This document shows, piece by piece, positions 8,292 through 45,724 of a DNA stretch of 64,000 nt (positions within the stretch are counted from its first letter, which is position 1; each line of letters begins with the position of its first letter). The notes beneath the pieces were generated by a model. The model saw only the letters and a program-made list of their open reading frames with translations. It was not told where the DNA came from and made no database searches. A program made the position numbers and the translations under genes. Source of the stretch: Dehalococcoidia bacterium (lineage in GTDB: Bacteria > Chloroflexota > Dehalococcoidia > Lucifugimonadales > UBA1127); NCBI GenBank assembly GCA_965217675.1, contig OZ244559.1, positions 2,243,216 through 2,307,215 on the forward strand, given 5' to 3'.

Positions 8292-8305
8292 GGGGCGCGG
8301 ATCCA

Positions 8306-11039: not shown

Positions 11040-11173
11040 CCCCAGCCTCCAAACCCTTCCCACCTCCCCCCAACCCTTGCCCCGGCCCACCCCCTCCGGT
11101 ACAGTGTTTCCGGCCCGCCTGCCAGAAGCGTCGGCGTGTGCCGCCCATTCTACACTCGAATGGAGGACCAGGC

Positions 11174-16819: not shown

Positions 16820-17323
16820 CTACCGCTGATGGTCCATCATCTGTACCCATTGGGCGATGATCCGGTCGTCTTGGGGGAAGGCCAGGGGCGGGAGGTCGTC
16901 GACGGAGAAATAGCCCGCGCCGTCGATCTCCCAGGACTCCGTCGTGAGGCCGCCGCCGATAGCCTGGGCGCCGTAGGCTGCGACCACGATGGGGCGGCCA
17001 GAGACGGAGAAGAGCCCAACGAGGCCGGTGATGGTCACCTTCAGCCCGGTCTCCTCGAGGGCCTCGCGGGCGGCGGCTTCCTCGACGACCTCGCCCTGCT
17101 CCACATAGCCCCCGGGGAGGGCCCAACGGCCCTTCTCCTCGCCGTAACTTCGCTGCACCATGAGCAGTTTAGAGGAGTCTCCGACCAACACGGTGGCGAC
17201 CAGCTTCGGGCCGAGCTGCAGGATGACCTGGCACTGCGGGCAATAGGGCCGCCATTGGCCGTCCACGGTGCGGACGGTCACCGCGCTCCGACAGGTCGGA
17301 CAGCTTTCGAAATTCGTGAACAT
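16820..17323 (-). CDS. NUDIX hydrolase with N-terminal zinc-ribbon
   Basis: This is the C-terminal 167 codons of ORF 16820..17578, with the start at ATG 17323 (MFTNFESCPTCRS...CPQC). The Nudix box is GGYVEQGEVVEEAAAREALEETG. Confidence 0.85.
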   Translation of the reverse strand: MFTNFESCPTCRSAVTVRTVDGQWRPYCPQCQVILQLGPKLVATVLVGDSSKLLMVQRSYGEEKGRWALPGGYVEQGEVVEEAAAREALEETGLKVTITGLVGLFSVSGRPIVVAAYGAQAIGGGLTTESWEIDGAGYFSVDDLPPLAFPQDDRIIAQWVQMMDHQR

Positions 17324-17349
17324 CGTCACCCCTCGGCCAAATGGGGGTA

Positions 17350-17358
17350 TGCTATATG
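17350..17358 (+). promoter_or_regulatory. Candidate extended -10 promoter (TGcTATATG) for the MmgE/PrpD gene
   Basis: TG at 17350-17351 and TATATG at 17353-17358, in the divergent intergenic region. Confidence 0.3.
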
Positions 17359-17414
17359 CCGCCCTTTTGGCTGAACGCCCGTATGGTACACCACCGGAGG
17401 AGGTTCCCCAACAC

Positions 17415-19165: not shown

Positions 19166-19783
19166 GTGTCCAGCTACGCAGTAATCCAGACCGGCGGGAA
19201 GCAGTACCGGGTCCAGCCCGGCGACGTCATTGACGTTGAGAAGCTCGAGGAAGAGGTGGGCGCGCGGGTAGCGCTGTCCGACGTGCTGCTTGTCGGCGAA
19301 GACGATGCGGTTTCCGTGGGAACGCCCACCGTGGACGGGGCCCAGGTGACGGCAGAGGTCGCCGATCAGTTCCGCGGTCCGAAGATCATCGTTTACAAAT
19401 ACAAAGCCAAGACCCGCTACCGCCGCAAGAACGGCCATCGCCAGAGCTACACGCGGCTGCGCATCAGGCATATCCTGACCGGCGGCGCCGAGGAGCCCGA
19501 AGAAGTGGTGGCGGAGCCCGTCGCTGAAGAGACGGTAGAGGAAGCCGCACCGGCCCCGGCCCCTCGACGCAGGCGCCGCACGGCACAGCCCGCCGCGGCA
19601 ACCGAGGAGCAGGCGGCGGAAGCGGTCGCTGAGGAGCCCGTCGCGTCTGCTGAAGAAGCTGAGGCGGTGGAAGCTGTGGCAGAGGAGCCCGTTGCCTCTT
19701 CAGAAGAGCCTGAGGCCGCAGAAACTGGCGAAGCAGATTCCCAAGCGGAGGAACCCTCCGAGGGCGAAAAGAAGGCAGAGTAA
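19166..19783 (+). CDS. rplU: 50S ribosomal protein L21 with a C-terminal acidic Ala/Glu/Pro-rich extension of about 100 residues
   Basis: ORF 19166..19783 (GTG start). The N-terminal roughly 103 aa ([13 protein letters not shown]...[28 protein letters not shown]) are canonical L21. The remainder is low-complexity and contains a tandem 17-codon repeat. Confidence 0.9.
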
Positions 19784-19825
19784 CCGCTCCGCTTAACCGG
19801 GGCGAGGGAACCAGGGAGTAGAACA

Positions 19826-20083
19826 ATGGCCCATAAGAAGGGTGGCGGTTCCAGCCGGAACGGCAGAGACAGCAAGGGGCAGCGCCTCGGCGTCAAGGTG
19901 TACGGCGGCCAGGTGGTGCGCACCGGAGCGGTTCTGGTTCGGCAGCGCGGCACACGCATCTACCCCGGCAAGAACGTTGGGCTTGGACGCGACTTCACTC
20001 TGTTCGCACTCGCGGACGGCGAGGTGAAGTATGAGTGGGCGCTGAAGGACCGCAAGATGGCCAGCGTCTACCCGCAGGGGTAG
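19826..20083 (+). CDS. rpmA: 50S ribosomal protein L27
   Basis: ORF 19826..20083. [29 protein letters not shown] is present. Confidence 0.95.
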
Positions 20084-20122
20084 CTTAAAGGCTGCATCGT
20101 CGGGTTCAGGAGTGACTAGGCA

Positions 20123-20326
20123 ATGAAGACAGCGATACATCCACAGTGGCACGCAGAAGCAGTGGTACACTGCGTGTGCGGCAACACCTTCACCACCGGC
20201 TCAACGAAGCCGGAGTTGCGCGTGGAGATCTGCAACCGATGCCACCCGTACTTCACGGGTGAGCAGCGAATTGTGGACACCGAGGGCCGGGTCGAGCGCA
20301 TCAAGCGGAGGTACAACCTCAAGTAG
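20123..20326 (+). CDS. rpmE: 50S ribosomal protein L31 (Zn-ribbon type)
   Basis: ORF 20123..20326. MKTAIHPQW...CVCGNTF...[10 protein letters not shown] is present. Confidence 0.95.
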
Positions 20327-20338
20327 CGCGGACCGGAT

Positions 20339-20372
20339 CTCGGGGTGGTGCAAGCCACCCCGAGTTCTTTTT
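20339..20372 (+). terminator. Rho-independent terminator after rpmE
   Basis: A 10-bp stem (CTCGGGGTGG / CCACCCCGAG) closes the loop TGCAAG and is followed by TTCTTTTT. Confidence 0.7.
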
Positions 20373-20515
20373 CAGGGCAATTGGCGATTCCCAGTCCAGT
20401 TGGACATTGGACAGGCCCAGGCAAACGGAATGGGCGGGGCCGCCAGGGGAGAGGTTCCCGTATTCGCGGGAACGGCGTGAAGCAAGCGCAGGGAAGGCAA
20501 CGGGAGGACAACAGG

Positions 20516-21526
20516 ATGCCGCAGCCGTTCTACTACGGTGGTCAGGCCCTGATAGAGGGTGTGCTCATCAGGGGGCAGCGGAACGTGCGCATGGCCGTAC
20601 GCCGTCCCGATGGAGGCATCTGGACTGGGCCGCTCCCACTGAACCCCATCACGAGCGGCCGGCTTCGCCGCATTCCGCTGGTGCGGGGTGTGCTGGTGCT
20701 GGCCGAGGCACTGCTCATGGGCATGCGCGGATTGAACCGTTCGGCAGAAATTGCGATGGCGGACCCCGACGCGCCGCCTGTTCCCGACGGCGAGCAGCCG
20801 AAGGTCGGCAAGGCAGAGCGGGTCAGCATGGCGTTCACCATGGCGATCGCGCTTGTCTTCGGCATCGGCATCTTCTTCCTGCTGCCGCTGTTTGGCGCTC
20901 GCTCGCTCGACAGCGTTATCGAATCGTCCGTCGTGAGCAACTTGCTGGAGGGTGTCATCCGGTTGGCGATGCTGGTGGGGTACATCTGGCTCATCGGGCA
21001 CCTGAGGGACGTCAAACGCGTCTTTGCCTACCACGGCGCGGAGCACATGACCATCCACGCATACGAGCACGGGAGGCCTCTGGAGCCGGAGGAAATCGAG
21101 CAATTCCCGACGGCACACCCGCGCTGCGGCACGGCCTTCCTGCTGACCGTGGTGCTGGTGTCCGTGCTGGTATTTACGCTTGTGGGCCGCCCTTCCCTGG
21201 TATGGGCTGTGGTTTCCCGCATCGCGCTGGTGCCGGTAATCGCCGCTGTGAGCTACGAATTCCTGCGGTTCAGCGGGGCACACAGCGAGCGCGCTTGGGC
21301 GCAGATGCTGGCGTTCCCCGGCCTCATGCTGCAACGGCTCACCACGCGCTGGCCCGACCGCTCCCAGATTGAGGTGGCGGTAGCTGCGATGAACAGCACC
21401 CTGGCCGCGGACGGGGTCATCCCGGCGGGCAGGCCCTCAGACGACGCGTCGCCGGTCGAGGACGGCCCCTTGCGACAAGATTCAACGCAGGAGGGGCAGG
21501 CAGCCTCTGAGGGTGAAGCCAGATAG
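20516..21526 (+). CDS. DUF1385 family membrane protein (YqhQ-like)
   Basis: ORF 20345..21526. I place the start at ATG 20516 (MPQPFYYGGQALIEGVLIRG), downstream of the terminator. YHGAEHMTIHAYE is present. The position after rpmE is common for this family. Confidence 0.85.
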   Translation: MPQPFYYGGQALIEGVLIRGQRNVRMAVRRPDGGIWTGPLPLNPITSGRLRRIPLVRGVLVLAEALLMGMRGLNRSAEIAMADPDAPPVPDGEQPKVGKAERVSMAFTMAIALVFGIGIFFLLPLFGARSLDSVIESSVVSNLLEGVIRLAMLVGYIWLIGHLRDVKRVFAYHGAEHMTIHAYEHGRPLEPEEIEQFPTAHPRCGTAFLLTVVLVSVLVFTLVGRPSLVWAVVSRIALVPVIAAVSYEFLRFSGAHSERAWAQMLAFPGLMLQRLTTRWPDRSQIEVAVAAMNSTLAADGVIPAGRPSDDASPVEDGPLRQDSTQEGQAASEGEAR

Positions 21527-21532: not shown

Positions 21533-21541
21533 TGCTATACT
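21533..21541 (+). promoter_or_regulatory. Candidate extended -10 promoter (TGcTATACT) of the arginine operon
   Basis: TG at 21533-21534 and TATACT at 21536-21541, about 98 nt upstream of argJ. Confidence 0.35.
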
Positions 21542-21639
21542 CCTAGGGTTGTTTGCCAGAGGCCTCCACAACGGAATTTCCACCTATCCAGCCCTAATCG
21601 TTGTGCGCTGGAATAGACAACCAACCGTAGGAGACACCA

Positions 21640-22854
21640 ATGACACATGAAATAGCTGTTGTCCCGGACGGGTCTGTCACGACCCCGCTGGGATTCACCG
21701 CAGGGGGGACGTACGCTGGAATTCGCACGTACGCCCCGGGCAAAGTCGACCTAGGCATGCTCTTCTCAGACAGTCCGGCTACGGCCGCCGGGACCTACAG
21801 CCTGAACAAAATCCTCTCGCCTTCCGTGACTGTCAGCAGGCGGAACGTCGCTAGAGGCTATTCCCGCGGTGTGATTGTGAACAGCGGTTGCGCCAACTGC
21901 TCCGTCGGCGATCAGGGCCTGAAGGATGCCGAGGAGATGGCGTCGCTGGCCGCGGGCGTGGTCGGCGTGGCCGCCGAGGACATGGCTGTCAGCAGCACCG
22001 GGCTCATCGGCGTCGAGCTGCCCATGGGCCTCATCCGGAACGCCGTCGGCAATATCGAGCTCACCCGGGACGGCGGGCACGATTTCGCCCGGTCCATCAT
22101 GACCACGGACACGGTCAGCAAGGAGATTGCGGTCGCCTTCTCCGTAGGCGACGTCACCGTGACCGTTGCGGGCTGCTGCAAGGGCTCCGGCATGATCCAC
22201 CCCAACATGGCCACGATGCTTGCCTACCTGACCACCGACGCCGAGGTGGGCGCTGCCTTCCTGCAGGAGACCCTGAGCGAGGTGGTAGACGCCACATTCA
22301 ACATGGTGGACATTGACGGCGACACAAGCACGAACGACACCGTGCTGCTGTTCGCCAACGGCGCATCGGGCGCGGCAGCTGCCAAGGGGACACCGCAGGG
22401 CGAGGCTTTCGCCGCAGCTCTCTTGCAGGTGTGCACCCACCTGTCGCGGGAGATGGTGAAGGACGGCGAGGGCGCCACCAAGCTCATCGAAGTAACGGTG
22501 GACGGCGCGGAAAGCGTCGAGGATGCGCGGCTGGCGGCCCGTTCCGTGGCGAGCTCAATTCTGGTGAAGACAGCCATCCACGGAAACGACCCCAACTGGG
22601 GGCGCATCATGATGGCTGTTGGCAAGAGCGGCGCGGAGGTTGTTGAGAACAAGATCACCCTCCATGTGAACGACATCTGCATCATGGAGGCGGGTCTGCC
22701 CGTGCCGTACCTGCGGGAGTCGCTGGTGGCGTCCATGCACGGCGACGAGGTCCGCATCCGCGTAAGCCTTAACCTCGGCAACGGCGTGGCAGTCGGCTGG
22801 GGCTGCAATATGAGCGAGGAATTCGTCACCTTCAACAGCGCGTATACCACGTAG
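21640..22854 (+). CDS. argJ: Bifunctional glutamate N-acetyltransferase / amino-acid acetyltransferase
   Basis: ORF 21640..22854 (404 aa). It contains the autoprocessing region KGSGMIHPNMATMLAY and the C-terminal NSAYTT. Confidence 0.95.
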   Translation: MTHEIAVVPDGSVTTPLGFTAGGTYAGIRTYAPGKVDLGMLFSDSPATAAGTYSLNKILSPSVTVSRRNVARGYSRGVIVNSGCANCSVGDQGLKDAEEMASLAAGVVGVAAEDMAVSSTGLIGVELPMGLIRNAVGNIELTRDGGHDFARSIMTTDTVSKEIAVAFSVGDVTVTVAGCCKGSGMIHPNMATMLAYLTTDAEVGAAFLQETLSEVVDATFNMVDIDGDTSTNDTVLLFANGASGAAAAKGTPQGEAFAAALLQVCTHLSREMVKDGEGATKLIEVTVDGAESVEDARLAARSVASSILVKTAIHGNDPNWGRIMMAVGKSGAEVVENKITLHVNDICIMEAGLPVPYLRESLVASMHGDEVRIRVSLNLGNGVAVGWGCNMSEEFVTFNSAYTT

Positions 22855-22859
22855 AGAAG

Positions 22860-22897
22860 AGCGCCGCGTCCGGCAATCGGGCGCGGCGCTTTCAATT
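22860..22897 (+). terminator. Strong GC hairpin with a weak U tract between argJ and argB (possible partial terminator or processing site)
   Basis: A 13-bp stem (AGCGCCGCGTCCG / CGGGCGCGGCGCT, with one G-U pair) closes the loop GCAAT and is followed by TTCAATT. Confidence 0.3.
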
Positions 22898-22915
22898 GAG
22901 GCAACAGAGGAAACG

Positions 22916-23704
22916 GTGAGCGCAGCCAGACAACAGAAGCCCATCGTCATCAAGATTGGCGGCAGCACCCTGGGGAGCGGGGACACGACGCTGGAGGATG
23001 TTGTCGCCATGCAGCGGCGGGGGCTCGCGCCCGTCGTCGTCCACGGCGGCGGTCAGGTCATCAGCCGATGGATGGAGAAGACGGGCGCGGCGCCGCATTT
23101 TGTGCGAGGCATGCGGGTGACGGACGAGGCGGCGCTGGACATTGTGCTGGCCGTCCTCACGGGGCTGGTGAACAAACAGCTGGTGGCCTCTGTCCTGGCG
23201 CACGGCGGCAAGGCGATGGGATTCAGCGGGGCCGACGGGGGCATCCTGCAGGCGAAGACGCTGGACCCGGACCTGGGCTATGTGGGGGACATTACGAAGG
23301 TTGACGCGTCGCCGATCCAGGAGATGGTGGCGATGGGGTGGATCCCCGTCATTGCGCCGATCGCGGTGGGCCTGAACGGCGGGCCCGGAGCAACGCTGTA
23401 CAACATCAACGGTGACGTGGCCGCGGGTGAGTTGGCGGCGGCGTTGGAGGCGGAGCGGCTCATCTATCTGACGGACGTCGACGGCGTGATGGACGCAGGA
23501 AAGCGGACGGTGCCGCGGCTGCTGCCAGAGCAGGCAGAGTCGCTCATCGAGAGCGGCGTTGCCGCGGGGGGCATGATCCCCAAGCTGGAGGCATGCCTGA
23601 AGGCGCTACCCAAAGTGGGCACAGCGCAAATTTTGGACGGCAGAGAGCCCCACGCGCTCCTGGAGTGCCTGGAGGGCAGGGGTAAAGGCACACGCATTGG
23701 CTAA
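22916..23704 (+). CDS. argB: Acetylglutamate kinase
   Basis: ORF 22916..23704 (GTG start). IVIKIGGS...VVVHGGG...NINGDVAAGELAAAL is present. Confidence 0.9.
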   Translation: MSAARQQKPIVIKIGGSTLGSGDTTLEDVVAMQRRGLAPVVVHGGGQVISRWMEKTGAAPHFVRGMRVTDEAALDIVLAVLTGLVNKQLVASVLAHGGKAMGFSGADGGILQAKTLDPDLGYVGDITKVDASPIQEMVAMGWIPVIAPIAVGLNGGPGATLYNINGDVAAGELAAALEAERLIYLTDVDGVMDAGKRTVPRLLPEQAESLIESGVAAGGMIPKLEACLKALPKVGTAQILDGREPHALLECLEGRGKGTRIG

Positions 23705-23719
23705 GGCAAGGAGACGCTA

Positions 23720-26503
23720 ATGGCAGGCAATTTTGGCGGCGGTTTCGGCGGCGGCTTCCCAAACTTCGGTCAGCCGGGGCAAATTGGGACGCCGGAGATT
23801 CCGTGGCGGGGGTTGGTCCTGTGGGGCGGCGGCATTGCTCTGGTGATAGGGCTGTTCCTATTGGCCTTCTGGCTGCTGGACGTGTACACCAACTTCCTCT
23901 GGTTCGGTAACCTGGGGTTTGAGGGCGTGTACCGCACGATCCTGGTCCAACGCATCTGGCTCTTCTTCACCGGCACGCTCCTCTTCGCGATTATCTCATC
24001 GATCAGCGTTTGGCTTACATACCGCTACGGGCGGGGACCACAGGTGACGCCCGTGCCGGAAGAGACGCTGGAGTTGCTGAGGCCGCTTACGCTGGCTGGT
24101 GTGATCTTCGTCATTGCCATTGCCTCACTCATCTTCGGCGGCGTAGCGGGCGGCGGCTGGAACGTGGTGTTGGGCTACATCCACTCCACGAGTTTCGGCG
24201 TGTCGGACGCGCAGTTCGGCCAGGACGTCTCGTTCTTCGTCTTCACGCTGCCGTTGCACCAGCTGGTGCAGGGGTGGCTGCTGGGCGCGTTCATCGTGAC
24301 GTTGCTAATGAGCCTGGGCATGTACTTCGTTCACTTCAGCCTGCGGGGGGCCGTCTTTTCCTTGACGCCGCCCGTTCGGACGCACCTTTCGGTCTTGGGC
24401 GCGCTGTTGCTCTTCACCTTTGGGTACGGCTACTGGATCGACATCTACAACCTCGTTTTCTCGAACAACGGGGCGGTAGTGGGCGCCACGTACGCGGACG
24501 TCAACGCACGCATCCCGGGCCTGACGGTGCTCATCTTCATCGTCTCTGCGGGGGGCCTGCTTATGCTGCTCAACGCCTTCTGGCTGCGGGGCACACGGCT
24601 CATGGTGGGCATTGGGCTGCTGTGGGTGGGCGCGCTGATAATACTGCAGTTCGCGTGGCCCAACGCGGTGCAGCGGTTCCAAGTCATCCCGTCCGAGTTG
24701 GAGCGGGAGCGGCAGTTCATAGGCAGGAACATTGAGGCCACACGGGACGCCTTCGGGCTGAACCGCATCGCCGAGTCGTCGTACCCGATTCGGGAGAATC
24801 CCCGGGTGACCAAGGATATCGTCGAAGCGAACCCAGGGATCATCTCGAATCTGCGGCTGTGGGACCACCGGCCGTTCCTTGACACGTTGAACCAGATCCA
24901 GTTCATCCGGCTGTACTACGACTTCCAGGACGTAGACGTGGACCGGTACACGCTGGACGGCGAATATACGCAGCTCATGATAAGCGCGCGGGAGCTCTCT
25001 CCGGAGCGGCTGCCGCAGGAAGCCCAGAACTGGGTGAACCGGACGCTCCAGTTCACCCATGGCTTTGGCGTGGTCGCGGCGCCGGTGACGGAGTTCGCGG
25101 ACGACGGCAAGCCGGAATTCGTGCTGCAGGACGTGCCGCCCACGGGCAAGATCCCGGTGACCCGCCCGGAGGTCTACTACGGCGAAAACACGCGGGACTA
25201 CGTCGTCGCCAACTCCGGGGTGGAGGAGTTTTCCTACCCCACGGAGACGGACATTCCCGTTTACGAGCGGTATCAGGGCCATGGCGGCGTCCTCGTGAGC
25301 GGGTTCTTGCGACGGCTTGCCTACGCTTGGAAGTTCCGGGACCTGAACCTGCTGATCAGCGAGAACATCACGCCTGGCAGCCGAATCCAGTACAACCGGA
25401 ACATCCAGGAGCGAGTGGCGGACGTCGCCCCATTCCTGGTGATGGACAGTGATCCGTACGTGGTCGTGGTCAACGGCGAGTTGCAGTGGATTCAGGACGC
25501 GTACACGGTCACAAGCCGGTACCCGTACTCGACGCCGTTCTCCGGAGAATTGGGCGATTTCAACTACATTCGCAACAGCGTCAAGGTCGTCATGAGCGCG
25601 TACCAGGGCGACTTGACCTTCTACGTGATTGAGCCAACGGATCCGCTTGTCCAGACGTACCAGAAGGTGTTCCCCAAGCTCTTCACGCCCATTGACGAGA
25701 TCGACACCCGGCATCCGGGGCTCCGGGAGCACATCCGCTACCCGGAGGGCCTCTTTGAGGCGCAGGCGCAGCAGTACCTTCAGTACCACATGACGGATAC
25801 CACGGTCTTCTTCAACAAAGAGGACCAATGGAGCATCCCACAGGAGGAGTTCTTTAGTGCTCCGGAGATGATGCAGCCGTACTACCTCATCATGAAGCTG
25901 CCGGACTCCGTTCAAGAGGAGTTTGTGCTGCTGCTGCCGTTCACGCCTGCCGAACGCCCGAACATGGTGTCGTGGCTGGCGGCGCGCAACGACGGCGAGC
26001 GGTATGGCGAGCTGGTGAACTTCGTGTTCCCGCGGGGCAAGCAGCTGGACGGGCCACTGCAGGTCGAGGCCCGTATCGACAACGACCCGGATATCTCGCA
26101 GCAATTCACGCTGTGGGGGCAAGTCGGGTCACAGGTGCTTCGTGGGAACCTGCTTGTGGTCCCGATTGACAACACCATCCTGTATGTGGAGCCGGTGTTC
26201 CTGCAGGCGGAGAACCTCGCCTTCCCGGAACTCAAGCAAGTCATTGTCGCGGACGCGGGTGAGGTCGTGATGCGGCCAACGCTGCAGGCGGCCCTCGACG
26301 CGCTTACGGGCTCGAGCACACCTGCTCCATCGCTGGATACGCCGGTCCCCGTTGCGGACGCAGCGCCGCCCGCAGAGGCGGGGTCGCTGCAGGAAGCGCT
26401 GGGCGACGCGTCGGACGCCATCGAATCCCTGGATTTGGCGTTTGAAGAGTTGAGGCGATCCCTTGAGGAACTAAACCGGCTTGCGGAGGAGCAGCAACGA
26501 TGA
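23720..26503 (+). CDS. UPF0182 family large integral membrane protein
   Basis: ORF 23720..26503 (927 aa). It has multiple N-terminal TM helices followed by a large soluble domain. LWFGNLGFEGVYRTIL, GATYADVNARIP and NLLVVPIDNTILYVEPVFLQ are typical of UPF0182. An AAGGAGA RBS is present. Its stop overlaps the argD start (ATGA). Confidence 0.85.
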   Translation: MAGNFGGGFGGGFPNFGQPGQIGTPEIPWRGLVLWGGGIALVIGLFLLAFWLLDVYTNFLWFGNLGFEGVYRTILVQRIWLFFTGTLLFAIISSISVWLTYRYGRGPQVTPVPEETLELLRPLTLAGVIFVIAIASLIFGGVAGGGWNVVLGYIHSTSFGVSDAQFGQDVSFFVFTLPLHQLVQGWLLGAFIVTLLMSLGMYFVHFSLRGAVFSLTPPVRTHLSVLGALLLFTFGYGYWIDIYNLVFSNNGAVVGATYADVNARIPGLTVLIFIVSAGGLLMLLNAFWLRGTRLMVGIGLLWVGALIILQFAWPNAVQRFQVIPSELERERQFIGRNIEATRDAFGLNRIAESSYPIRENPRVTKDIVEANPGIISNLRLWDHRPFLDTLNQIQFIRLYYDFQDVDVDRYTLDGEYTQLMISARELSPERLPQEAQNWVNRTLQFTHGFGVVAAPVTEFADDGKPEFVLQDVPPTGKIPVTRPEVYYGENTRDYVVANSGVEEFSYPTETDIPVYERYQGHGGVLVSGFLRRLAYAWKFRDLNLLISENITPGSRIQYNRNIQERVADVAPFLVMDSDPYVVVVNGELQWIQDAYTVTSRYPYSTPFSGELGDFNYIRNSVKVVMSAYQGDLTFYVIEPTDPLVQTYQKVFPKLFTPIDEIDTRHPGLREHIRYPEGLFEAQAQQYLQYHMTDTTVFFNKEDQWSIPQEEFFSAPEMMQPYYLIMKLPDSVQEEFVLLLPFTPAERPNMVSWLAARNDGERYGELVNFVFPRGKQLDGPLQVEARIDNDPDISQQFTLWGQVGSQVLRGNLLVVPIDNTILYVEPVFLQAENLAFPELKQVIVADAGEVVMRPTLQAALDALTGSSTPAPSLDTPVPVADAAPPAEAGSLQEALGDASDAIESLDLAFEELRRSLEELNRLAEEQQR

Positions 26504-27708
26504 ACCAGTACATTGAGATGGAAAAGCAGTACTACATGGGCACGGTGCGCCGTCAGCCCGTCGTCATCGAACGGGGCCAGGGGTCGCGCGTCTGGGACAC
26601 GGACGGCAAGGAGTACCTAGACTTCACTGCGGGCTGGGCGGTCGATTGCCTCGGCCATTGCCCGCCGGTGATGGTGCAGGCCATCGCGGAGCAGGCCTCC
26701 ACACTCATCCAGACGTCCAACCAGTTCTACACGCTGCCGCAGCTCGACCTAGTGAAGATCCTCGTAGAGAACAGCTGCCTGGACAAGGTCTTCCTGTGCA
26801 ACAGCGGCGCGGAGGCCAACGAGGGCGCCATCAAGCTGGCCCGCAAGTACGGCCGCGAGAACCGGAACGGCGCCGTCGAAATCATTACGGCCGTAGATTC
26901 CTTCCATGGACGCACTCTTGGGGCGCTGGCGGCGACGGGCAACCCCAACTACCAGGCAAACTTCCTGCCGCTGATGACCGGATTCGTGAATGTCCCCTTC
27001 GGCGACATCGAGGCGATCAAAGCGGCAACGAACCCCGGCACCTGCGCCGTCATGCTCGAGCCGGTACAGGGCGAGGGCGGCGTCAATGTGCCCCCGGCAG
27101 ACTACCTCAAAGGCGTCCGCGAGTGGTGCGACGCGAACGGCCTGTTGCTCATTCTTGACGAGATCCAGACGGGCATCGGCCGGCTTGGCACGCTCTTTGG
27201 GTATGAGCAGTTCGACGTGGAGCCGGATGTCATGACGCTGGCCAAGGCAATGGGCGGCGGCGTGCCCATCGGCGCCTTTATGTGCAAGGACTCCTGCGAC
27301 GTGCTTCGCCCCGGCGACCACGGCAGCACCTACGGCGGCAACGCCCTCACCACCGCGGCGGCCTACGCCGTCGTCAAGGAGGTCATCGACGGCGGCTGGG
27401 TGGAGCACGGCCGCGTGATGGGTGAGCGGCTGAAGGCCGGACTCGAGCGGGTGAATGCCGCGCACGAGAACTCCGTCAAGGAGGTGCGCGGCATGGGCCT
27501 GCTGCTGGCCGTCGAGTTCCACGAGGCCATCGCGGGGGAAGTTGTCACGTCGTGCAATGCCGGCGGGCTGTTGCTGAACCCCGTGCGGCCGACTGCGGTG
27601 CGCTTCATGCCGGCGCTGAACGTCTCCGATGCCGAGGTGGACATTGCAGTGGACCGCTTCGAGCGCTCGCTGGTGGAAACGGTGGAGCGCGTCGGCAAGG
27701 CATCGTAG
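26500..27708 (+). CDS. argD: Acetylornithine aminotransferase
   Basis: ORF 26500..27708. LCNSGAEANEGAIKLAR, ILDEIQTGIGRLG and TLAKAMGGGVPIGA (the PLP Lys region) are present. Confidence 0.9.
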   Translation: MNQYIEMEKQYYMGTVRRQPVVIERGQGSRVWDTDGKEYLDFTAGWAVDCLGHCPPVMVQAIAEQASTLIQTSNQFYTLPQLDLVKILVENSCLDKVFLCNSGAEANEGAIKLARKYGRENRNGAVEIITAVDSFHGRTLGALAATGNPNYQANFLPLMTGFVNVPFGDIEAIKAATNPGTCAVMLEPVQGEGGVNVPPADYLKGVREWCDANGLLLILDEIQTGIGRLGTLFGYEQFDVEPDVMTLAKAMGGGVPIGAFMCKDSCDVLRPGDHGSTYGGNALTTAAAYAVVKEVIDGGWVEHGRVMGERLKAGLERVNAAHENSVKEVRGMGLLLAVEFHEAIAGEVVTSCNAGGLLLNPVRPTAVRFMPALNVSDAEVDIAVDRFERSLVETVERVGKAS

Positions 27709-27749
27709 GCATTCAACAGACACTCAATCGCACACTTGAAGGACGGGAG

Positions 27750-28952
27750 ATGGCAAAGCAGAAGGTGGTCTTGGCTTACAGTGGCGGTCTGGACACATCG
27801 GTGGCCATACCGTGGATAAAGGAGCACTACGACGCCGAGGTCATCACAGTGACAGCGGAGCTTGGGCAAGGCCGCGACCTTGAAGAGGTGAGGCTGAAGG
27901 CCCTGGCAACCGGCGCAGAGAAGGCCATTGTCCTGGACGGCCAGGACGCCTTCGTCGAGCGCTTTGTGTGGCCGGCCCTGCGCGCCGGCGCCATCTACGA
28001 GGCGCAGTACCCGCTGGCGACCGCCCTTGCGCGTCCGCTCATTGCGGAGTACCTGGCCAACGTTGCACTGGAAGAGGGAGCGGAGTTCGTCGCGCACGGC
28101 TGCACCGGCAAGGGCAATGACCAAGTGCGATTCGACGTGAGCGTGGGCGCGCTGGCGCCGCACCTGCAGGTCATCGCGCCAGCCCGCGAGTGGGGCATGA
28201 GCCGTGACGAGGAGATGGTCTACGCGGCCCAGCACAATGTTCCCGTCCCCAACACCAAGGACAGCCCCTTTTCCGTCGACGAAAACCTGTGGGGCCGCTC
28301 CATCGAGGCGGGGGTGCTGGAGGACCCGTGGAATGAGCCACCCGAGGAGATCTACGCATGGACCCGCTCCATGGCGGAGACGCCGGACGCTCCCCTGTAC
28401 CTGGAAATCGGATTTGAGCGTGGCATTCCGTTCTCGGTCAACGGCGAGACGCTGGGCGGCAAAGCGTTGGTGCTGCACCTGAACGCGCTGGCAGGCGAGC
28501 ATGGTGTGGGCCGCATCGACCACCTGGAGAACCGGCTGGTGGGCATCAAGTCGCGGGAGATCTATGAAGCTCCGGCGGGCGTCGTGCTACACGCGGCACA
28601 CCGGTCGCTGGAGACGCTGACACTGAGCCGTGACCAGATGCGGTTTCGGGAGCTGGTAGCGCAGCAATACGCCGAACTGGTGTACAACGGACTCTGGTTC
28701 TCTCGGCACCGGGAGGACTTGGACGCCTACGTGGACAGCATCCAGGACTTCGTGTCGGGCACGGTCCGGGTGCGGTTGCACAAGGGCACGTGCTCCGTCG
28801 TTGGTCGGCAGTCGCCACACGCGCTGTACGACTACGGCCTCGCAACGTACGACGAGGCGGACCAGTTTGACCACCAGGCGTCGGTGGGGTTCATCAAGGT
28901 ATTCGGGCTGCCGGTACGCACACAGGCCAAGCGGCAGCCGCGGCAATCGTAG
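27750..28952 (+). CDS. argG: Argininosuccinate synthase
   Basis: This is the in-frame part of ORF 27552..28952, with the start at ATG 27750 (MAKQKVVLAYSGGLDTSV). HGCTGKGNDQVRF is present. Confidence 0.95.
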   Translation: MAKQKVVLAYSGGLDTSVAIPWIKEHYDAEVITVTAELGQGRDLEEVRLKALATGAEKAIVLDGQDAFVERFVWPALRAGAIYEAQYPLATALARPLIAEYLANVALEEGAEFVAHGCTGKGNDQVRFDVSVGALAPHLQVIAPAREWGMSRDEEMVYAAQHNVPVPNTKDSPFSVDENLWGRSIEAGVLEDPWNEPPEEIYAWTRSMAETPDAPLYLEIGFERGIPFSVNGETLGGKALVLHLNALAGEHGVGRIDHLENRLVGIKSREIYEAPAGVVLHAAHRSLETLTLSRDQMRFRELVAQQYAELVYNGLWFSRHREDLDAYVDSIQDFVSGTVRVRLHKGTCSVVGRQSPHALYDYGLATYDEADQFDHQASVGFIKVFGLPVRTQAKRQPRQS

Positions 28953-28968
28953 GCAACCGGAGGGCGAC

Positions 28969-29277
28969 ATGGCAGACAAGTATGTGTACATCGCGGCAAT
29001 GGACGTGGACTCGGACAAGGAAGCCGACTTCAACGATTGCTATGACAATGAGCACGTACCCGCGCTGTTGAAGGTGCCGGGCGTGCTGAGCGCGAACCGC
29101 TATTGTGCGGAGGAGGGCTCGCCGAAGTACATTGCCGTGTACGAGATCGAGAGCCCGGACGTCGTGACGAGCGACGCGTGGGTGGCCGCGGCGGACTCAG
29201 GGCGCTGGCCAACGGAGATCCGGCCGTTCTGCCGGAACCGCAATCGAATCGTCTACAAGGCAATCGGCGGCGAGTAG
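28969..29277 (+). CDS. Small dimeric alpha/beta-barrel-like protein (EthD/DUF4286-like), function unknown
   Basis: This is the in-frame part of ORF 28801..29277, with the start at ATG 28969 (MADKYVYIAAMDVDSDKEADFNDCYDNEHVPALLKVPGVLSANRY...). The family assignment is pattern-level only. Confidence 0.55.
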   Translation: MADKYVYIAAMDVDSDKEADFNDCYDNEHVPALLKVPGVLSANRYCAEEGSPKYIAVYEIESPDVVTSDAWVAAADSGRWPTEIRPFCRNRNRIVYKAIGGE

Positions 29278-29314
29278 GGCGAGACCCCTCGGCGCGGGGA
29301 CGGCAGGCGGCACG

Positions 29315-29785
29315 ATGATCCACGACGGCAAGGACCGCTACGGGCGCTACCTGGAGGACTTCCAGGTGGGCGACGTCTACCGCCACTGGCCGGGCAAGAC
29401 CATCACAGAGAGCGACAACAACCTCTTTTGCCTGCTCACCATGAACCACAACCCCCTCCACCTGGACGAGAACGTCATGAAGGACCACCAGCACGGGCGC
29501 ATACTAGTTGCGGGCCCGCTGGTGCTCAGCGTGGCCGTCGGCATGAGCGTGATCGACACCTCGGGCCGGGCCATCGCCAACCTCGAGTACGAGAAGGTGG
29601 TGCACGACGGCCCGGTGTTCGCCGGCGACACCATCTACGCCGAAAGCGAAGTGCTGGAGGTGCGGGAGTCGGCGTCGCGGCCGGACCGGGGCGTCGTGTA
29701 CATCGAGACGCGCGTGCACAACCAGCGCCAAGAGCGGGTGCTGACCTACCGCCGCAGGTTCCTCGCCCCCAAGAGGCCGGCGTAA
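29315..29785 (+). CDS. MaoC-like (hot-dog fold) dehydratase / enoyl-CoA hydratase
   Basis: ORF 29315..29785 (156 aa). NNLFCLLTMNHNPLHLDE and GDTIYAESEVLEVRES are typical of MaoC dehydratase domains. The stop TAA overlaps the argH ATG (TAATG). Confidence 0.85.
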   Translation: MIHDGKDRYGRYLEDFQVGDVYRHWPGKTITESDNNLFCLLTMNHNPLHLDENVMKDHQHGRILVAGPLVLSVAVGMSVIDTSGRAIANLEYEKVVHDGPVFAGDTIYAESEVLEVRESASRPDRGVVYIETRVHNQRQERVLTYRRRFLAPKRPA

Positions 29786-31143
29786 TGGCGGACGAATATT
29801 CATCGCTGGACTACACGGCGTCGCTGCACTACGACTGGCGGCTCTACCGGGAGGACATCAGCGGTTCCCAGGCCCACGCCCGAATGCTCGCCCGCCAGGG
29901 CATCATCTCCGCTGACGAAGCCAATGGCATCTGCGCGGGCCTCGACGCCATCCGCCAAGAGATAGAGGACGGGTTTTTTCCGTGGCGGAAGGAGCTGGAA
30001 GACCTTCACATGAACGTGGAGGCGCGCCTCCACGACCTCATCGGCGAGACGGCCGGCAAGCTGCATACGGCCCGCTCCCGCAACGACCAGGTGGCGACGG
30101 ACATGCGGCTCTACGTGCGGCGCACGGCGGCGGAGACGGCCGACGCGCTGCGCGGGCTGCAGCGCGCACTGGCATCGGTGGCCGGCGAGCACGTGAACAC
30201 CGCCATGCCTGGTTACACGCACCTGCAGCGGGCGCAACCCGTGGTGCTTGCCCATCATCTTTTGGCCTATGTGGAGATGCTGGAGCGCGACGTGGAGCGG
30301 TTCCAACAGGCCGGCGCACGCGCCAACGTGATGCCGCTCGGCAGCGGCGCGCTGGCGGGGTCGCCGTACCCTCTCGACCGGGAGTCCGTCGCGGAGGAGC
30401 TCGGCTTCGACGGGGTCACGGCCAACAGCATGGACGCCGTGGCGGACCGGGACTTCGTGCTGGACTACCTATACGCCGCCTCGGCGTGCATGGCTCATCT
30501 CTCCCGCATGGGGGAGGAGTTCGTGCTGTGGTCGTCGGAGGAGTTTGGGTTCCTGCGGCTGGCGGATGATGACACCACCGGCAGCAGCATCATGCCGCAG
30601 AAGCGCAACCCTGACCTGGCCGAGCTTGCGCGCGGACGCACGGGGCGCGTCTACGGTCACCTCATGGGCATGCTCACGACTGTGAAGGGCCTGCCGCTCA
30701 CCTACAACCGCGACCTGCAGGAGGACAAGGAGGCGTTGTTCGACACGGTGGACACGCTCTTGCCGACGGTCTCGGCGTTCACACGGATGCTCGGCGGCGC
30801 GACCTTCAACCGCAAGCGCATGGCACAGGCAGCGGAGGGCGGCGGCTACAGCCTCGCGACGGACCTGGCCGACTACCTGGTGCGCAAGGGGCTGCCCTTC
30901 CGGAAGGCCCACGGCGTGGTGGCGCAGCTCACGCGCTACGCCGAGGACCGCGGCGCAGGGTTCGAAGACCTGTCGCTGGAGGACTACCGCTCGTTCTCGC
31001 CACTGTTTGACGAGGACGTGTTAAGCACGACGGTCGCGTCGGCACTGGATTCGCGAAACGTGCCGGGCGGGACGGCGCCGTCCCAAGTGGCGGCGGCGCT
31101 CCGGCGCGTGCGGGAACGGCTTGGCATGGAGCAGGAACCGTAG
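29785..31143 (+). CDS. argH: Argininosuccinate lyase
   Basis: This is the in-frame part of ORF 29428..31143, with the start at ATG 29785 (MADEYSSLDYTASLHYDWRLYREDISGSQAHARML). The GSSIMPQKRNPD signature is present. Confidence 0.9.
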   Translation: MADEYSSLDYTASLHYDWRLYREDISGSQAHARMLARQGIISADEANGICAGLDAIRQEIEDGFFPWRKELEDLHMNVEARLHDLIGETAGKLHTARSRNDQVATDMRLYVRRTAAETADALRGLQRALASVAGEHVNTAMPGYTHLQRAQPVVLAHHLLAYVEMLERDVERFQQAGARANVMPLGSGALAGSPYPLDRESVAEELGFDGVTANSMDAVADRDFVLDYLYAASACMAHLSRMGEEFVLWSSEEFGFLRLADDDTTGSSIMPQKRNPDLAELARGRTGRVYGHLMGMLTTVKGLPLTYNRDLQEDKEALFDTVDTLLPTVSAFTRMLGGATFNRKRMAQAAEGGGYSLATDLADYLVRKGLPFRKAHGVVAQLTRYAEDRGAGFEDLSLEDYRSFSPLFDEDVLSTTVASALDSRNVPGGTAPSQVAAALRRVRERLGMEQEP

Positions 31144-31146
31144 CCC

Positions 31147-31297
31147 CGTCCTTCCCGCGAAAGCGGGAATCCTGAGGGGGGTCGGGCTACGGGTTGGCTC
31201 TGGCCAATTGCAGAGCAGGCCCGCTAGAGAAGGCGTAGGCTGAACGGTTGGAGCACATCCCTCCCCTGCGTGGATTTCGGCTTTCGCCGGAAAGACG
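31147..31297. repeat. Inverted pair of family D hairpin repeats downstream of argH
   Basis: CGTCCTTCCCGCGAAAGCGGGAATCC at 31147-31172 and GGATTTCGGCTTTCGCCGGAAAGACG at 31272-31297 lie in opposite orientation, about 100 bp apart. Confidence 0.6.
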
Positions 31298-31337: not shown

Positions 31338-32663
31338 TTGGCACTCTTAACGCCGAACATAGTCAAGCGGAACACCAACAAGGTGTTCTTCGGCTGGTGG
31401 ATTGTCGCCGGGGCCATCGGCATTCAGTTCCTGCATGGCGGACTGCTATTCCAGGCCTTTGGCGCCTACTTCGTGCGGCTGCAAGAGGAATTCGGCTGGA
31501 GCCGCGCCACCCTCTCCTGGTCGTTCTCCCTGCTGCGCGTCGAGAGCGGGCTGCTGGGGCCGCTGCAGGGCTGGCTCATCGATCGCTTTGGGCCGCGGTC
31601 GGTGCTGATTATCGGGCTGATCATCTTTGCGATCGGGTTCATGTTGCTTAGCCGGATAGACTCGCTATTGACCTTCTACCTCGCCTTTGTCGTCATCGCG
31701 ATTGGCAGCGGGCTCGGTGGGTTCCTCACCCTCTTCGTTAGCGTCTCCGCCTGGTTCCGGCGCCGGCGGGCAACGGCGCTGGCGCTCTCGCAGATTGGGG
31801 GAAGCATCGGCGGGATTTTCGTTCCTCTTGTTGCGCTGGCCCTGATCAACTTCGGGTGGCGGGATACTGCATTCGCCTCCGGCATCATCATCTTGGTGGT
31901 GGGCTTGCCGCTGACGCCGCTGATGCGAGCGAGGCCGGAAAAATACGGGATGCTGCCGGACGGCGGCCAGCGTTTCGAGCGAAGAACGGTGGAGACGCGG
32001 GCGCCGATTGATCCCGAGCGGGAGTTCACGGCGCGGGAGGCGATGCGGACGCCGGCCTTCTGGTTCATCTCGATGGGGCACGGGAGCGCGTTGTTTGTGG
32101 TGGGCGCCCTGATGGTGCACCTGATCCCGCACCTGGTACAGAAGCTGGGCGTCTCGCTTGAATCGGCGGCGGCTGTGGTGACGGTGATCACGACGGCGCA
32201 GATTGTCGGACTGGTGAGCGGCGGGGTCCTGGGCGATCGGATGGACAAGCGGCTCATCGCGGCGGCGTGCATGGTGGGCCATACGGTGGCGCTGATTGGC
32301 ATAGCCTATGCGGGGTCCCTGTGGCTGGTATACGCCTTCGCCGTAATTCACGGGCTGGCGTGGGGCGCCCGCGGTCCGCTGATGGGGGCGATACGCGCCG
32401 ATTACTTCGGGGTAAAGGCGATTGGGACGATCATGGGGTTTTCGTCGCTCATCGTGACCGTCGGCAACGTGTTTGGGCCGGTATTCGCGGGATGGATGGC
32501 GGACGTGCGGGGCGACTACGAGACGGGGTTTGTAATACTGGCGGCGATGACCGGCGTCGGGACGGTGTTCTTCCTCGCGTCCAAGCGGCCGTCGCGGCCC
32601 GAGAGCACGTGGGCACGGGGCCGTCGGCTTGTCATGCAGCGGCGCGCGAGGGAGCGGGACTAG
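31338..32663 (+). CDS. MFS transporter (oxalate/formate antiporter-like subfamily)
   Basis: ORF 31338..32663 (TTG start as given by the track; the start is uncertain). It has about 12 predicted hydrophobic segments and the motif GWLIDRFGPR. Confidence 0.8.
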   Translation: MALLTPNIVKRNTNKVFFGWWIVAGAIGIQFLHGGLLFQAFGAYFVRLQEEFGWSRATLSWSFSLLRVESGLLGPLQGWLIDRFGPRSVLIIGLIIFAIGFMLLSRIDSLLTFYLAFVVIAIGSGLGGFLTLFVSVSAWFRRRRATALALSQIGGSIGGIFVPLVALALINFGWRDTAFASGIIILVVGLPLTPLMRARPEKYGMLPDGGQRFERRTVETRAPIDPEREFTAREAMRTPAFWFISMGHGSALFVVGALMVHLIPHLVQKLGVSLESAAAVVTVITTAQIVGLVSGGVLGDRMDKRLIAAACMVGHTVALIGIAYAGSLWLVYAFAVIHGLAWGARGPLMGAIRADYFGVKAIGTIMGFSSLIVTVGNVFGPVFAGWMADVRGDYETGFVILAAMTGVGTVFFLASKRPSRPESTWARGRRLVMQRRARERD

Positions 32664-32765: not shown

Positions 32766-34151
32766 ATGCCTTCGCGTTCTAGGAGAGTGGGAATTTCGGG
32801 TTTGACTACTCCGGACATACTTAAGAGGAACGCCAACCGCCTGTTCTATGGGTGGTGGATTGTCGCCGCGGCAATCGTCATTCAAGGTCTGCAGGGCGGC
32901 CTGTTGCTGCAGTCGTTTGGCGCCTACTTTCTGCGGCTGCAGGAAGAATTTGGGTGGAGCAGCGCAGCCCTTGCGTGGTCCTTCTCCATCCTGCAGCTGC
33001 AGAACGGTCTACTTGGCCCGGTGCAAGGCCTGCTTGTCGACCGGTTCGGTCCAAGGGTCGTGCTGACAGTTGGGGTAATCGTCCTTGCACTGGGATTTCT
33101 TATGCTCAGCCAAATCCAATCACTCTTGACGTTCTACCTGGCCTTTGTGGTCCTGTCGGTGGGATTTGGCCTGAGTGGGTACCTGACGCTCATCGTCGCC
33201 GTAGCAAACTGGTTTCAGCGCCGTCGTTCACTGGCGCTAGCGCTTTCCACGACGGGCTTGGGAATTGGCGGCATGCTGGTGCCCCTCGTGGCCATTTCCC
33301 TGAACTCCTTTGGATGGCGCAACACGGCCATCGCTTCATGCGCCATCATCCTCGCCGTGGGGCTGCCGTTGATGCCGATCATTCGCGGCAGACCCGAACG
33401 CTACGGCTTGCGACCGGATGGCGGTCCAGACCCGAGGGCAACCACCAACACCTCGCGGGCGGTGCAGACCGGACGGGACTTCACCGTAGGTGAGGCGATT
33501 CGCACGCCGGCGTTCTGGCTAATCTCCCTTGGTCACGGCAGCGCGTTGCTGGTGGTCGGCGCAATCATGGTTCACCTCATCCCCCACTTGGTGCACCGCC
33601 TGGACATGTCGCTGGAATCCGCGGCCCTCGTTGTCACGGTGATGACCATGACCTCCATGGTGGGACAGATCGGCGGAGGGCTCCTGGGCGACAGAATCGA
33701 CAAGCGGCTCATATGCGCGGCGGGAATGGTGGCGCATTGCGTGGCGCTCCTGGGAATCACGTTCGCCACGTCACTGGGCCTGGTCTACTTCTTTGCAATT
33801 CTCCATGGGTTGGCGTGGGGCGGCCGGGGACCACTCATGGGCGCGATTCGGGCCGACTACTTCGGGCGGCGGGCGCTGGGGACGATCATGGGGTTGTCTT
33901 CGGTCATTGTCACAATTGGAATCATGTTCGGACCGGTGTTTGCGGGGTGGATGGCGGATCTAAGGGGCGACTATCAGCTGGGTTTCGTTGTGCTGGCCAG
34001 CATGACAGGGCTGGCGTCAGTGTTCTTCCTGGCTGCGAAGAGGCCGCCACCGCCCACGCGCAGGTTGGCGGATATGCGAAGACGAGTCCTAGCGCGGCGG
34101 GAGCGGGAATCCGAACGGTGGGCGGAGGCCCGGAGCCGGGGGCAAGGCTAG
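32766..34151 (+). CDS. MFS transporter, tandem paralog of 31338..32663
   Basis: ORF 32766..34151. It is collinear with the upstream paralog from LTTPDILKRNANRLFYGWWIV onward. The true start may be TTG 32802. Confidence 0.8.
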   Translation: MPSRSRRVGISGLTTPDILKRNANRLFYGWWIVAAAIVIQGLQGGLLLQSFGAYFLRLQEEFGWSSAALAWSFSILQLQNGLLGPVQGLLVDRFGPRVVLTVGVIVLALGFLMLSQIQSLLTFYLAFVVLSVGFGLSGYLTLIVAVANWFQRRRSLALALSTTGLGIGGMLVPLVAISLNSFGWRNTAIASCAIILAVGLPLMPIIRGRPERYGLRPDGGPDPRATTNTSRAVQTGRDFTVGEAIRTPAFWLISLGHGSALLVVGAIMVHLIPHLVHRLDMSLESAALVVTVMTMTSMVGQIGGGLLGDRIDKRLICAAGMVAHCVALLGITFATSLGLVYFFAILHGLAWGGRGPLMGAIRADYFGRRALGTIMGLSSVIVTIGIMFGPVFAGWMADLRGDYQLGFVVLASMTGLASVFFLAAKRPPPPTRRLADMRRRVLARRERESERWAEARSRGQG

Positions 34152-45404: not shown

Positions 45405-45445
45405 CCTCTGGCAACGAAGCAACCGGCATCGATGGAGGTCGACCC

Positions 45446-45661: not shown

Positions 45662-45724
45662 CTTCCGGGGCCACACCCGCATGAGGGCGGTGGGAGCCCA
45701 TCCCATTCCAAGGGCGGTCTCACA

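Follow-up and report, generated by a model that had tools for sequence, protein, structure and literature searches.

Bacterial arg operons of the cyclic pathway have canonical forms such as argCJBD(F)(R)GH in Actinobacteria and argCJBD-carAB-argF in Bacillus. Conserved operons of mixed function, also described as 'uber-operons', are known as well, secY-adk-map inside the spc ribosomal operon being a case in point. Here we analyze an arginine operon that harbors a gene for a membrane protein of the UPF0182 family, located in a 64-kb stretch of the genome of an uncultured bacterium of the Dehalococcoidia, phylum Chloroflexota (contig OZ244559.1, positions 2,243,216 to 2,307,215; hereafter, the window). 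At the level of the genomic sequences compared, a linkage of argB, UPF0182 and argD is demonstrated that is class-wide in Dehalococcoidia and limited to that class.

UPF0182 proteins are universal in Actinobacteria, including M. tuberculosis, and are present in many other phyla, which places them among the most widespread membrane-protein families of bacteria that lack a settled function; their function is only now being approached. The passages of a 2026 preprint that deal with this family tie it to FtsH/YccA membrane-protein quality control in Actinobacteria, on the basis of correlated chemical-genomic phenotypes in three Actinobacteria together with AlphaFold3 (AF3) models, and predict that the protein forms a tetrameric periplasmic dome (bioRxiv 10.1101/2025.11.14.688347). 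In Leptospirillum, according to the passage concerned, a UPF0182 gene lies inside a speH-speE-odc cluster, which leads from ornithine to spermidine (PMC7231039). Linkage to arg genes is not mentioned in the UPF0182 passages of either source.

So how does the present locus compare with these systems? The relative order argJ-argB-argD-argG-argH is the same as in the canonical arg operons, and acetyl recycling of the ArgJ type is common to both; here, however, UPF0182 separates argB from argD, further passengers separate argG from argH, and argC, argF and carAB are missing from the window. As in the case of secY-adk-map, unrelated housekeeping genes would have been kept for a long time in an operon under selection on other grounds, except that the host is an amino acid biosynthetic operon and that the conservation extends over a single bacterial class. 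With the actinobacterial UPF0182 members MSMEG_1959, Rv3193c, DIP0733 and cg0896, as far as the preprint passages describe them, the window protein shares the full-length Pfam match and the combination of seven transmembrane (TM) helices with a large extracytoplasmic domain (bioRxiv 10.1101/2025.11.14.688347); it differs from them in scoring under the curated subfamily cutoffs and in its arg-operon context, and the FtsH/YccA link has been proposed for Actinobacteria. The Leptospirillum speH-speE-odc-UPF0182 cluster, going by the passage that presents it, similarly embeds UPF0182 among genes for ornithine-derived cationic nitrogen compounds in a lineage-specific manner, but the partners are polyamine genes there and arginine genes here, and the phylum is a different one (PMC7231039).

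The cluster belongs to the arg operons of the cyclic ArgJ kind, with an unusual but class-wide architecture, and the linkage is old. An old linkage between UPF0182 and arg genes is not proof of a role in arginine synthesis; most likely, it reflects co-expression rather than a new biochemical step. The explanation that we favor, with moderate confidence, is a single arg operon that carries an ancient, promoter-less UPF0182 passenger and younger hydratase and barrel passengers before argH.

Organization of the cluster

Nine closely packed genes were reported for the region between 21.5 and 31.2 kb on the plus strand, among which five arg enzymes and three interleaved non-arg genes are itemised:

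21640..22854, + strand: argJ, bifunctional ornithine acetyltransferase / N-acetylglutamate synthase, 404 aa (PF01960, E 2e-133; NF003802, 454 bits vs cutoff 351)
22916..23704, + strand: argB, acetylglutamate kinase, short 262-aa form (PF00696; TIGR00761, 229 bits vs cutoff 151)
23720..26503, + strand: UPF0182 family membrane protein, 927 aa (PF03699, E 2e-270, 899.5 bits vs gathering score 27)
26500..27708, + strand: argD, acetylornithine aminotransferase, 402 aa (PF00202; TIGR00707, 450 vs cutoff 410)
27750..28952, + strand: argG, argininosuccinate synthase type I, 400 aa (PF00764 and PF20979; NF001770, 581 vs cutoff 334)
28969..29277, + strand: 102-aa protein of the EthD/ABM superfamily by fold, a dimeric alpha+beta barrel of the ferredoxin-like kind (AlphaFold2 (AF2), Foldseek)
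29315..29785, + strand: single hot-dog MaoC-type enoyl-CoA hydratase, 156 aa, itaconyl-/mesaconyl-CoA hydratase clade (PF01575, PF19315)
29785..31143, + strand: argH, argininosuccinate lyase, 452 aa (PF00206 and PF14698; TIGR00838, 584 vs cutoff 279)

The single-strand gene order proposed in the initial annotation of this stretch, argJ-argB-UPF0182-argD-argG-(102-aa barrel protein)-MaoC-argH, was borne out by open reading frame (ORF) calls and by Pfam and NCBIfam scans, in which all five arginine enzymes (ArgJ, ArgB, ArgD, ArgG and ArgH) pass curated NCBIfam cutoffs, either equivalog or subfamily. The tight junctions described there are, each of them, seen in the sequence: a 15-nt gap that contains an AAGGAG ribosome-binding site leads from argB to UPF0182, the UPF0182 stop and the argD start share ATGA (-4 nt), and the MaoC stop and the argH start share TAATG, a 1-nt overlap that fixes the argH start at ATG 29785. 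The other intergenic gaps in the cluster measure 61, 41, 16 and 37 nt. The absence of argC, argF and carAB, initially stated for the cluster, held and extends to the approximately 60 Pfam-scanned ORFs of the 64-kb window; no argR was seen either, and an Rfam scan of the whole window at gathering thresholds found no riboswitch, leader or T-box. The ArgB protein (22916-23704), being the short form, is devoid of the N-terminal extension that is usual in arginine-inhibited hexameric ArgB kinases.

Conservation of the argJ-argB-UPF0182-argD arrangement

Related loci were sampled through UPF0182 and MaoC anchors. A UPF0182 protein search returned hundreds of Chloroflexota homologues, and a scan of GTDB, using one genome per species, yielded 80 UPF0182 loci at 37-49% identity, which were then searched with the window proteins by tblastn. 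In 23 of these 80, argB is located directly 5' of UPF0182, usually with argJ before and argD after, and each of them carries the label Dehalococcoidia, SAR202 or Chloroflexi/Chloroflexota. The extended order argJ-argB-UPF0182-argD-argG...argH was present in each of five contigs that were looked up (UPF0182 identity 87, 55, 54, 51 and 48%), and in a MaoC-anchored set of 80 metagenome loci, UPF0182 is directly 5' of argD in all 13 that carry both genes. Altogether, over 40 independent loci share the gene order, which goes far beyond chance. The identity of arg-linked UPF0182 proteins to the window protein falls to 40-41%. Because the arrangement is conserved across relatives, it is not peculiar to one genome, the outcome that had been named initially as one that would refute the proposal.

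None of the remaining 57 UPF0182 loci (17 from other Chloroflexota and 40 from further phyla, about 15 in number, both bacterial and archaeal) is arg-linked; this set includes Dehalococcoidales, Anaerolineae, Caldilineae, Chloroflexia, Cyanobacteria, Deltaproteobacteria, Latescibacterota, Firmicutes and archaea. The only arg-type matches outside the linked loci are aminotransferases in two loci, about 500 nt 3' of UPF0182 in one (L066), and at a distance and on the opposite strand in the other (L082). All-vs-all clustering and a Pfam scan of the 142 neighbor ORFs revealed no neighbor family that would be enriched at the 57 loci: the commonest accounts for 4 of the 142 neighbors, and a GGDEF regulator is found at 7 loci. 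Neither ftsH, yccA, speE, speH nor a decarboxylase gene is among the neighbors at these loci, and an ftsH or yccA neighbor was not seen at any UPF0182 locus in the sample.

Tight junctions prevail in most of the lineages, the lengths being measured from estimated start codons: no more than 21 nt separate argB and UPF0182 in 18 of 25 loci, and no more than 22 nt separate UPF0182 and argD in 13 of 22, with gaps of 100-200 nt or inserted genes near UPF0182 in some relatives. The flanks outside the arg genes are conserved only in the closest relatives. In a crude neighbor-joining tree, the arg-linked UPF0182 proteins cluster together and unlinked Dehalococcoidales sequences branch beside them, a pattern that, as far as such a tree can tell, fits one early gain followed by losses; two Dehalococcoidales relatives (L009 and L014) have kept UPF0182 without arg neighbors. 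In practical terms, the argB-UPF0182-argD order is usable as a synteny marker for Dehalococcoidia and SAR202 contigs.

Several variations of the arg genes themselves were noticed in these loci. In 6 relatives, argC is found directly 5' of argJ. In locus L166, the gene directly 5' of UPF0182 (7578-8987) encodes an ArgB of 469 aa that begins with a fused GNAT acetyltransferase domain. L002 has a separate GNAT gene (141 aa) in its argG-argH interval, and both GNATs might serve as short N-acetylglutamate synthases. The rpe gene (ribulose-phosphate 3-epimerase) is located 3' of argH in at least 20 Dehalococcoidia loci, including L004, L084 and L165-L167.

Transcription signals

Three elements bear on how the cluster might be transcribed:

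21533..21541, + strand: TGCTATACT, a promoter-like motif of the extended -10 type between DUF1385 and argJ; GTGAAG, 17 nt further upstream, is a weak -35
22858..22892, + strand: perfect 15-bp GC-rich hairpin, then UUUCAAUU (partial U-tract), between argJ and argB, detected by folding
31144..31240, + strand: structured GC-rich stretch 3' of argH, in the 194-nt gap before two major facilitator superfamily (MFS) genes (minimum free energy (MFE) -49.1 kcal/mol, z -2.25; no U-tract)

The TGCTATACT motif is invariant among the window and the relatives L001 and L002, though the proteins of these genomes differ by up to 45%. The extended -10 sequence conserved 5' of argJ in 13-14 loci reads TGnTATACT. 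Of 26 loci, 14 have its generalized form, TGnTAYAMT, no more than 200 nt 5' of argJ, irrespective of the upstream gene, and an operon-wide scan gave 13 matches 5' of argJ vs 5 elsewhere in the operons. The whole window contains four TGnTAYAMT matches, one of them before the his cluster, and none inside 21640-31143. At the other end, the structured stretch 31144..31240 likely marks the end of the transcription unit. Judging from the nucleotide sequence, these signals would fit one transcription unit extending from approximately 21548 to just past 31143.

Could the cluster, nevertheless, be a co-directional gene array instead of one transcription unit, in which internal promoters, or termination at the argJ-argB hairpin, separate the expression of UPF0182 and of the MaoC pair from that of the arg genes? 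The hairpin is strong (MFE -30.4 kcal/mol, z -4.2; none of 200 shuffled sequences folds as well), is followed by a partial U-tract 3' of argJ, and might act as a weak terminator or as an attenuator, or else stabilise the mRNA; the consensus promoter scan covered sigma-70-like promoters only; the loose junctions near UPF0182 in some of the relatives point in the same direction, as does locus L018, which has the motif TGCTACAAT 5' of argD. Against such an array stand the window junctions, 15 nt and -4 nt around UPF0182 and the 1-nt overlap of MaoC and argH, because of which there is no room for a noncoding promoter at these places, and the lack, inside the window cluster, of the promoter motif found upstream of argJ. 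The hairpin, for its part, lies 5' of argB and so cannot split UPF0182 from either argB or argD, and it is not conserved: L001, a close relative, carries another GC-rich hairpin between argJ and argB, and distant relatives have none. Given these considerations, we find the gene array very unlikely. The idea that the hairpin is a conserved attenuator was rejected, with other loci having different structures in the gap or no structure at all. Terminator-like matches in the region as a whole number 10, vs 9.1 expected from shuffled sequence.

Directly 5' of argJ, on the same strand (19166-21526), are rplU, rpmA, rpmE and a DUF1385 gene, in an order that is kept in L001 and L002. No terminator-like hairpin was found from the DUF1385 stop to the argJ promoter motif, and transcription read-through into argJ from these upstream ribosomal-protein genes is possible.

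The UPF0182 protein and the origin of its linkage to arg genes

The assignment to UPF0182 is straightforward, with residues 40-799 of the protein matching profile positions 6-770 of 770 in PF03699, and the scores nonetheless stay below the cutoffs of the NCBIfam UPF0182 subfamilies PRK02509 (767 vs 949), PRK00068 (759 vs 995) and PRK12438 (471 vs 1254). The architecture comprises about 7 TM helices in residues ~30-315, an acidic extracytoplasmic domain of about 600 aa and a C-terminal helix. In the hydropathy profile, six TM segments are clear in residues 37-312, the seventh falls within 205-264, and the acidic soluble part amounts to 615 aa. The AF2 model (predicted local distance difference test score, pLDDT, 70.8) has helices at 29-320 with pLDDT 75-96, including a helix at 217-247, and models residues 381-523 poorly. 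The protein has no PDB relative by sequence, and the model gave no Foldseek PDB match (best E 0.08, TM-score at most 0.09), for which reason the idea of a GT-C-like glycosyltransferase is unsupported. The initial statement that UPF0182 has no established function was nearly right, the qualification being the FtsH/YccA link proposed in the preprint passages on the family (bioRxiv 10.1101/2025.11.14.688347).

The explanation in terms of a passenger gene could accommodate these facts as follows. The cluster would be one polycistronic arginine operon of the cyclic ArgJ pathway, covering the argJ, B, D, G and H steps, transcribed from the conserved extended -10 promoter just 5' of argJ and ending after argH. 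In an early ancestor of Dehalococcoidia, a UPF0182 gene would have been inserted between argB and argD; its product, with the seven TM helices and the large extracytoplasmic part described above, would have a housekeeping role in the membrane. Having no promoter of its own, this gene would depend for its translation on reinitiation, or on close coupling, downstream of argB, and argD, in turn, on its ATGA overlap with UPF0182; a promoter-less, coupled gene would thereby become locked in an operon that selection maintains for the arg genes. UPF0182 would then be co-expressed with the arginine enzymes without contributing a pathway step. Between argG and argH, a later insertion would have brought in a module of an acyl-CoA dehydrogenase (ACAD) and an Ich/Mch-like MaoC hydratase, and in the lineage of the window the small alpha+beta-barrel gene would occupy the dehydrogenase position.

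Several points weigh against this explanation. The long retention of an unrelated, translationally coupled gene down to about 40% identity, with all flanking genes reshuffled, is unusual, and standard gene-neighborhood reasoning would score such retention as evidence of a functional link. Furthermore, in three loci (L018, L050 and L072), there are inserts at the argJ-argB and UPF0182-argD junctions, and argB and UPF0182 are still adjacent. Weak internal promoters may exist in the cluster, and the argJ-argB hairpin could attenuate transcription. The Leptospirillum spe cluster, as presented in the relevant passage, might be viewed as a second link of UPF0182 to the same metabolic area (PMC7231039).

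The main alternative is a functional tie of UPF0182 to the physiology of arginine, ornithine or polyamines in these bacteria, with selection for co-regulation keeping the gene next to argB; the protein might link the supply of these cationic nitrogen compounds to the homeostasis of the envelope or of membrane proteins, or might take part in their handling at the membrane. The tightly coupled, class-wide adjacency speaks for such a tie, as do the persistence of the argB-UPF0182 pair where the junctions around it are broken and the fact that no conserved genomic context other than the arg operon was found for UPF0182 proteins; to these can be added the Leptospirillum cluster, in which UPF0182 stands, independently, beside speH, speE and a gene resembling ornithine decarboxylase, in so far as the passage cited describes it (PMC7231039). 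However, none of the 57 other loci has an arg, spe or decarboxylase neighbor, and the Dehalococcoidales of loci L009 and L014 retain the gene in the absence of arg neighbors. Moreover, about two-thirds of the protein is extracytoplasmic, so only short cytoplasmic loops could touch the soluble Arg enzymes, and the actinobacterial phenotypes, as reported in the preprint passages, indicate FtsH/YccA, not amino acid metabolism. On balance, we consider a functional tie of this kind rather unlikely. A stronger version, under which UPF0182 has a role in ornithine, arginine or polyamine metabolism and was fixed in such operons by two unrelated lineages, reflecting coupling and not a frozen accident, strikes us as unlikely. 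As for the export, sensing or acyl-carrier side reaction that were suggested initially, no evidence in their support emerged from the analysis.

The position in the Dehalococcoidia arg operon is the only strongly conserved UPF0182 context found in this analysis, and therefore it can be read in two ways, as a clue to the function of the family or as a natural example of a locked-in, promoter-less passenger.

HflK-type proteins are modulators of FtsH, and in a single Dehalococcoidia genome (L028, 16124-17065) an SPFH/HflK-like gene was observed between argG and argH, with UPF0182, a family for which a link to FtsH has been proposed, in the same operon; being a single case, this may be a coincidence.

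The hydratase and barrel genes between argG and argH

The label of MaoC-like dehydratase, under which the 156-aa protein was first described, stands at the level of PF01575 (66.1 vs gathering 27) and can be narrowed. The protein also matches PF19315, MC_hydratase (68.1 vs 26.5), its score with RipB/Ich (NF038241) is 137.3 bits, below the equivalog cutoff of 340, and its nearest PDB entry is the beta-methylmalyl-CoA dehydratase 8hgn (E 2e-28). Considering these family and PDB matches together with the gene neighborhoods, it is better described as a putative Ich/Mch-type dicarboxyl-enoyl-CoA hydratase, the usual partner of which is an ACAD. The itaconyl-CoA hydratase RipB/Ich and the mesaconyl-CoA (beta-methylmalyl-CoA) hydratase Mch, which provide the best family and PDB matches, have the MaoC hot-dog fold in common with the window protein, and a RipC/CitE-like lyase neighbor, as in the Rip/Ict-Ich-Ccl pathway, is shared by MaoC genes outside arg operons. 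The differences are that the window MaoC falls under the equivalog cutoff (137 vs 340), that it consists of a single domain compared with the double hot-dog of Mch, that the upstream partner of MaoC is an ACAD, not a CoA transferase, and that the window gene overlaps argH.

Among the 80 metagenome loci of the same MaoC subfamily, ACAD is directly 5' of MaoC in 39, and a CitE/RipC-like lyase is directly 3' in 24, all of which are without arg genes. As many as 54 of the 80 loci lack any arg gene, and no CoA transferase was noted at the MaoC loci outside arg operons. In many Dehalococcoidia/SAR202 loci, an ACAD-MaoC pair is located between argG and argH, or else before a short-chain dehydrogenase/reductase (SDR) gene and pyrF. 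In the window cluster, neither a CoA transferase (RipA/Ict) nor a lyase (RipC/Ccl) is present.

The 102-aa protein was originally called EthD/DUF4286-like, which proved appropriate for the fold but not for the family, both hidden Markov model scores being under cutoff (DUF4286, PF14114, 19.5 bits vs gathering 25.8; EthD, TIGR02118, 17.4 vs 30.5). It has no PDB relative by sequence. Its AF2 model (pLDDT 94.6) shows a beta-alpha-beta-beta-alpha-beta fold and gives 69 PDB matches at E of at most 1e-3 in Foldseek, with EthD 2ftr at the top (E 3e-5, TM-score 0.67); it also fits ABM 3gz7 (TM-score 0.80), and ABM, LsrG and MhuD are about as close as EthD. In the window, the gene occupies the position of ACAD before MaoC. 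Among the fetched loci, it is found in the arg cluster of L001 only, and a homologue with 60% identity in another genome lies 3' of two ACAD genes.

One might then ask whether MaoC and the barrel protein, or ACAD in other genomes, perform a side reaction that serves the arginine pathway, for example, by processing a fumarate- or dicarboxylate-derived CoA ester around the ArgG and ArgH steps. In some 20 of the 80 MaoC-anchored loci, argH comes directly after MaoC and only a small gap separates the two, which overlap in the window; MaoC is 56-88% identical across these lineages, matching the conservation of the arg enzymes; and the substrates of the clade, C4/C5-dicarboxyl-enoyl-CoA such as mesaconyl- and itaconyl-CoA, are chemically near fumarate. 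However, in the 54 arg-free loci MaoC belongs to ACAD-MaoC-CitE-like lyase modules, which are typical of dicarboxylate or acyl-CoA catabolism, and in several SAR202-type loci MaoC is followed by the SDR gene and pyrF, not by argH. In other lineages, the slot is empty or filled with unrelated genes, the window cluster has no CoA-ligase or CoA-transferase gene, and the canonical arginine pathway, as established biochemically, requires no MaoC-type step. We regard such a side reaction as most improbable.

In support of the passenger explanation, the argG-argH slot is scrambled between lineages: it holds the 102-aa and MaoC genes in the window and, elsewhere, ACAD and MaoC, a GNAT gene, an uncharacterised 161-aa or 210-aa gene, an SPFH/HflK-like gene or nothing, with ACAD-MaoC plus two retropepsin-like ORFs as one further variant. 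Of the two options offered in the initial annotation, a functional link or lineage-specific scrambling of the operon, the second thus applies to this slot, and UPF0182 shows class-wide conservation. These observations call for caution in any neighborhood-based pathway annotation of MaoC, ACAD and other genes in these arg operons.

Other features of the window

A CitE-type lyase partner for MaoC within the window was considered and rejected, since the gene in question (11138-11956, + strand) encodes an aldolase of the HpaI/GarL type. Together with an MmgE/PrpD-family protein that scores far below the PrpD cutoffs (17268-18809, + strand) and a phosphoenolpyruvate (PEP)-mutase/isocitrate-lyase-family protein (42982-43938, + strand), it possibly belongs to organic-acid metabolism; no connection of these genes to MaoC was found. 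Immediately 3' of the arg cluster are two paralogous MFS transporter genes (31338-32663 and 32766-34151) of the lactate or oxalate/formate type.

A his cluster at 44041-47928 on the plus strand consists of an alpha/beta-hydrolase gene (44041-44781), hisH, hisA, an S-adenosylmethionine (SAM)-methyltransferase gene (46522-47097) and hisF. The alpha/beta-hydrolase stop overlaps the hisH start, and TGCTATAAT at 43984 precedes the cluster. Given that the his cluster also carries passengers, passengers in biosynthetic operons appear to be a habit of this genome and to be tolerated.

Finally, on the minus strand (56534-59251), a NuoG/FdhA-like molybdopterin oxidoreductase is encoded as two same-frame ORFs with a single TGA between them, in the motif NCSRT-TGA-HAPTIAG. 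This TGA is at the expected selenocysteine position of formate dehydrogenase alpha subunits and may be a putative selenocysteine codon. A NuoF-like gene (59314-61005, minus strand) lies immediately 5' of these ORFs.

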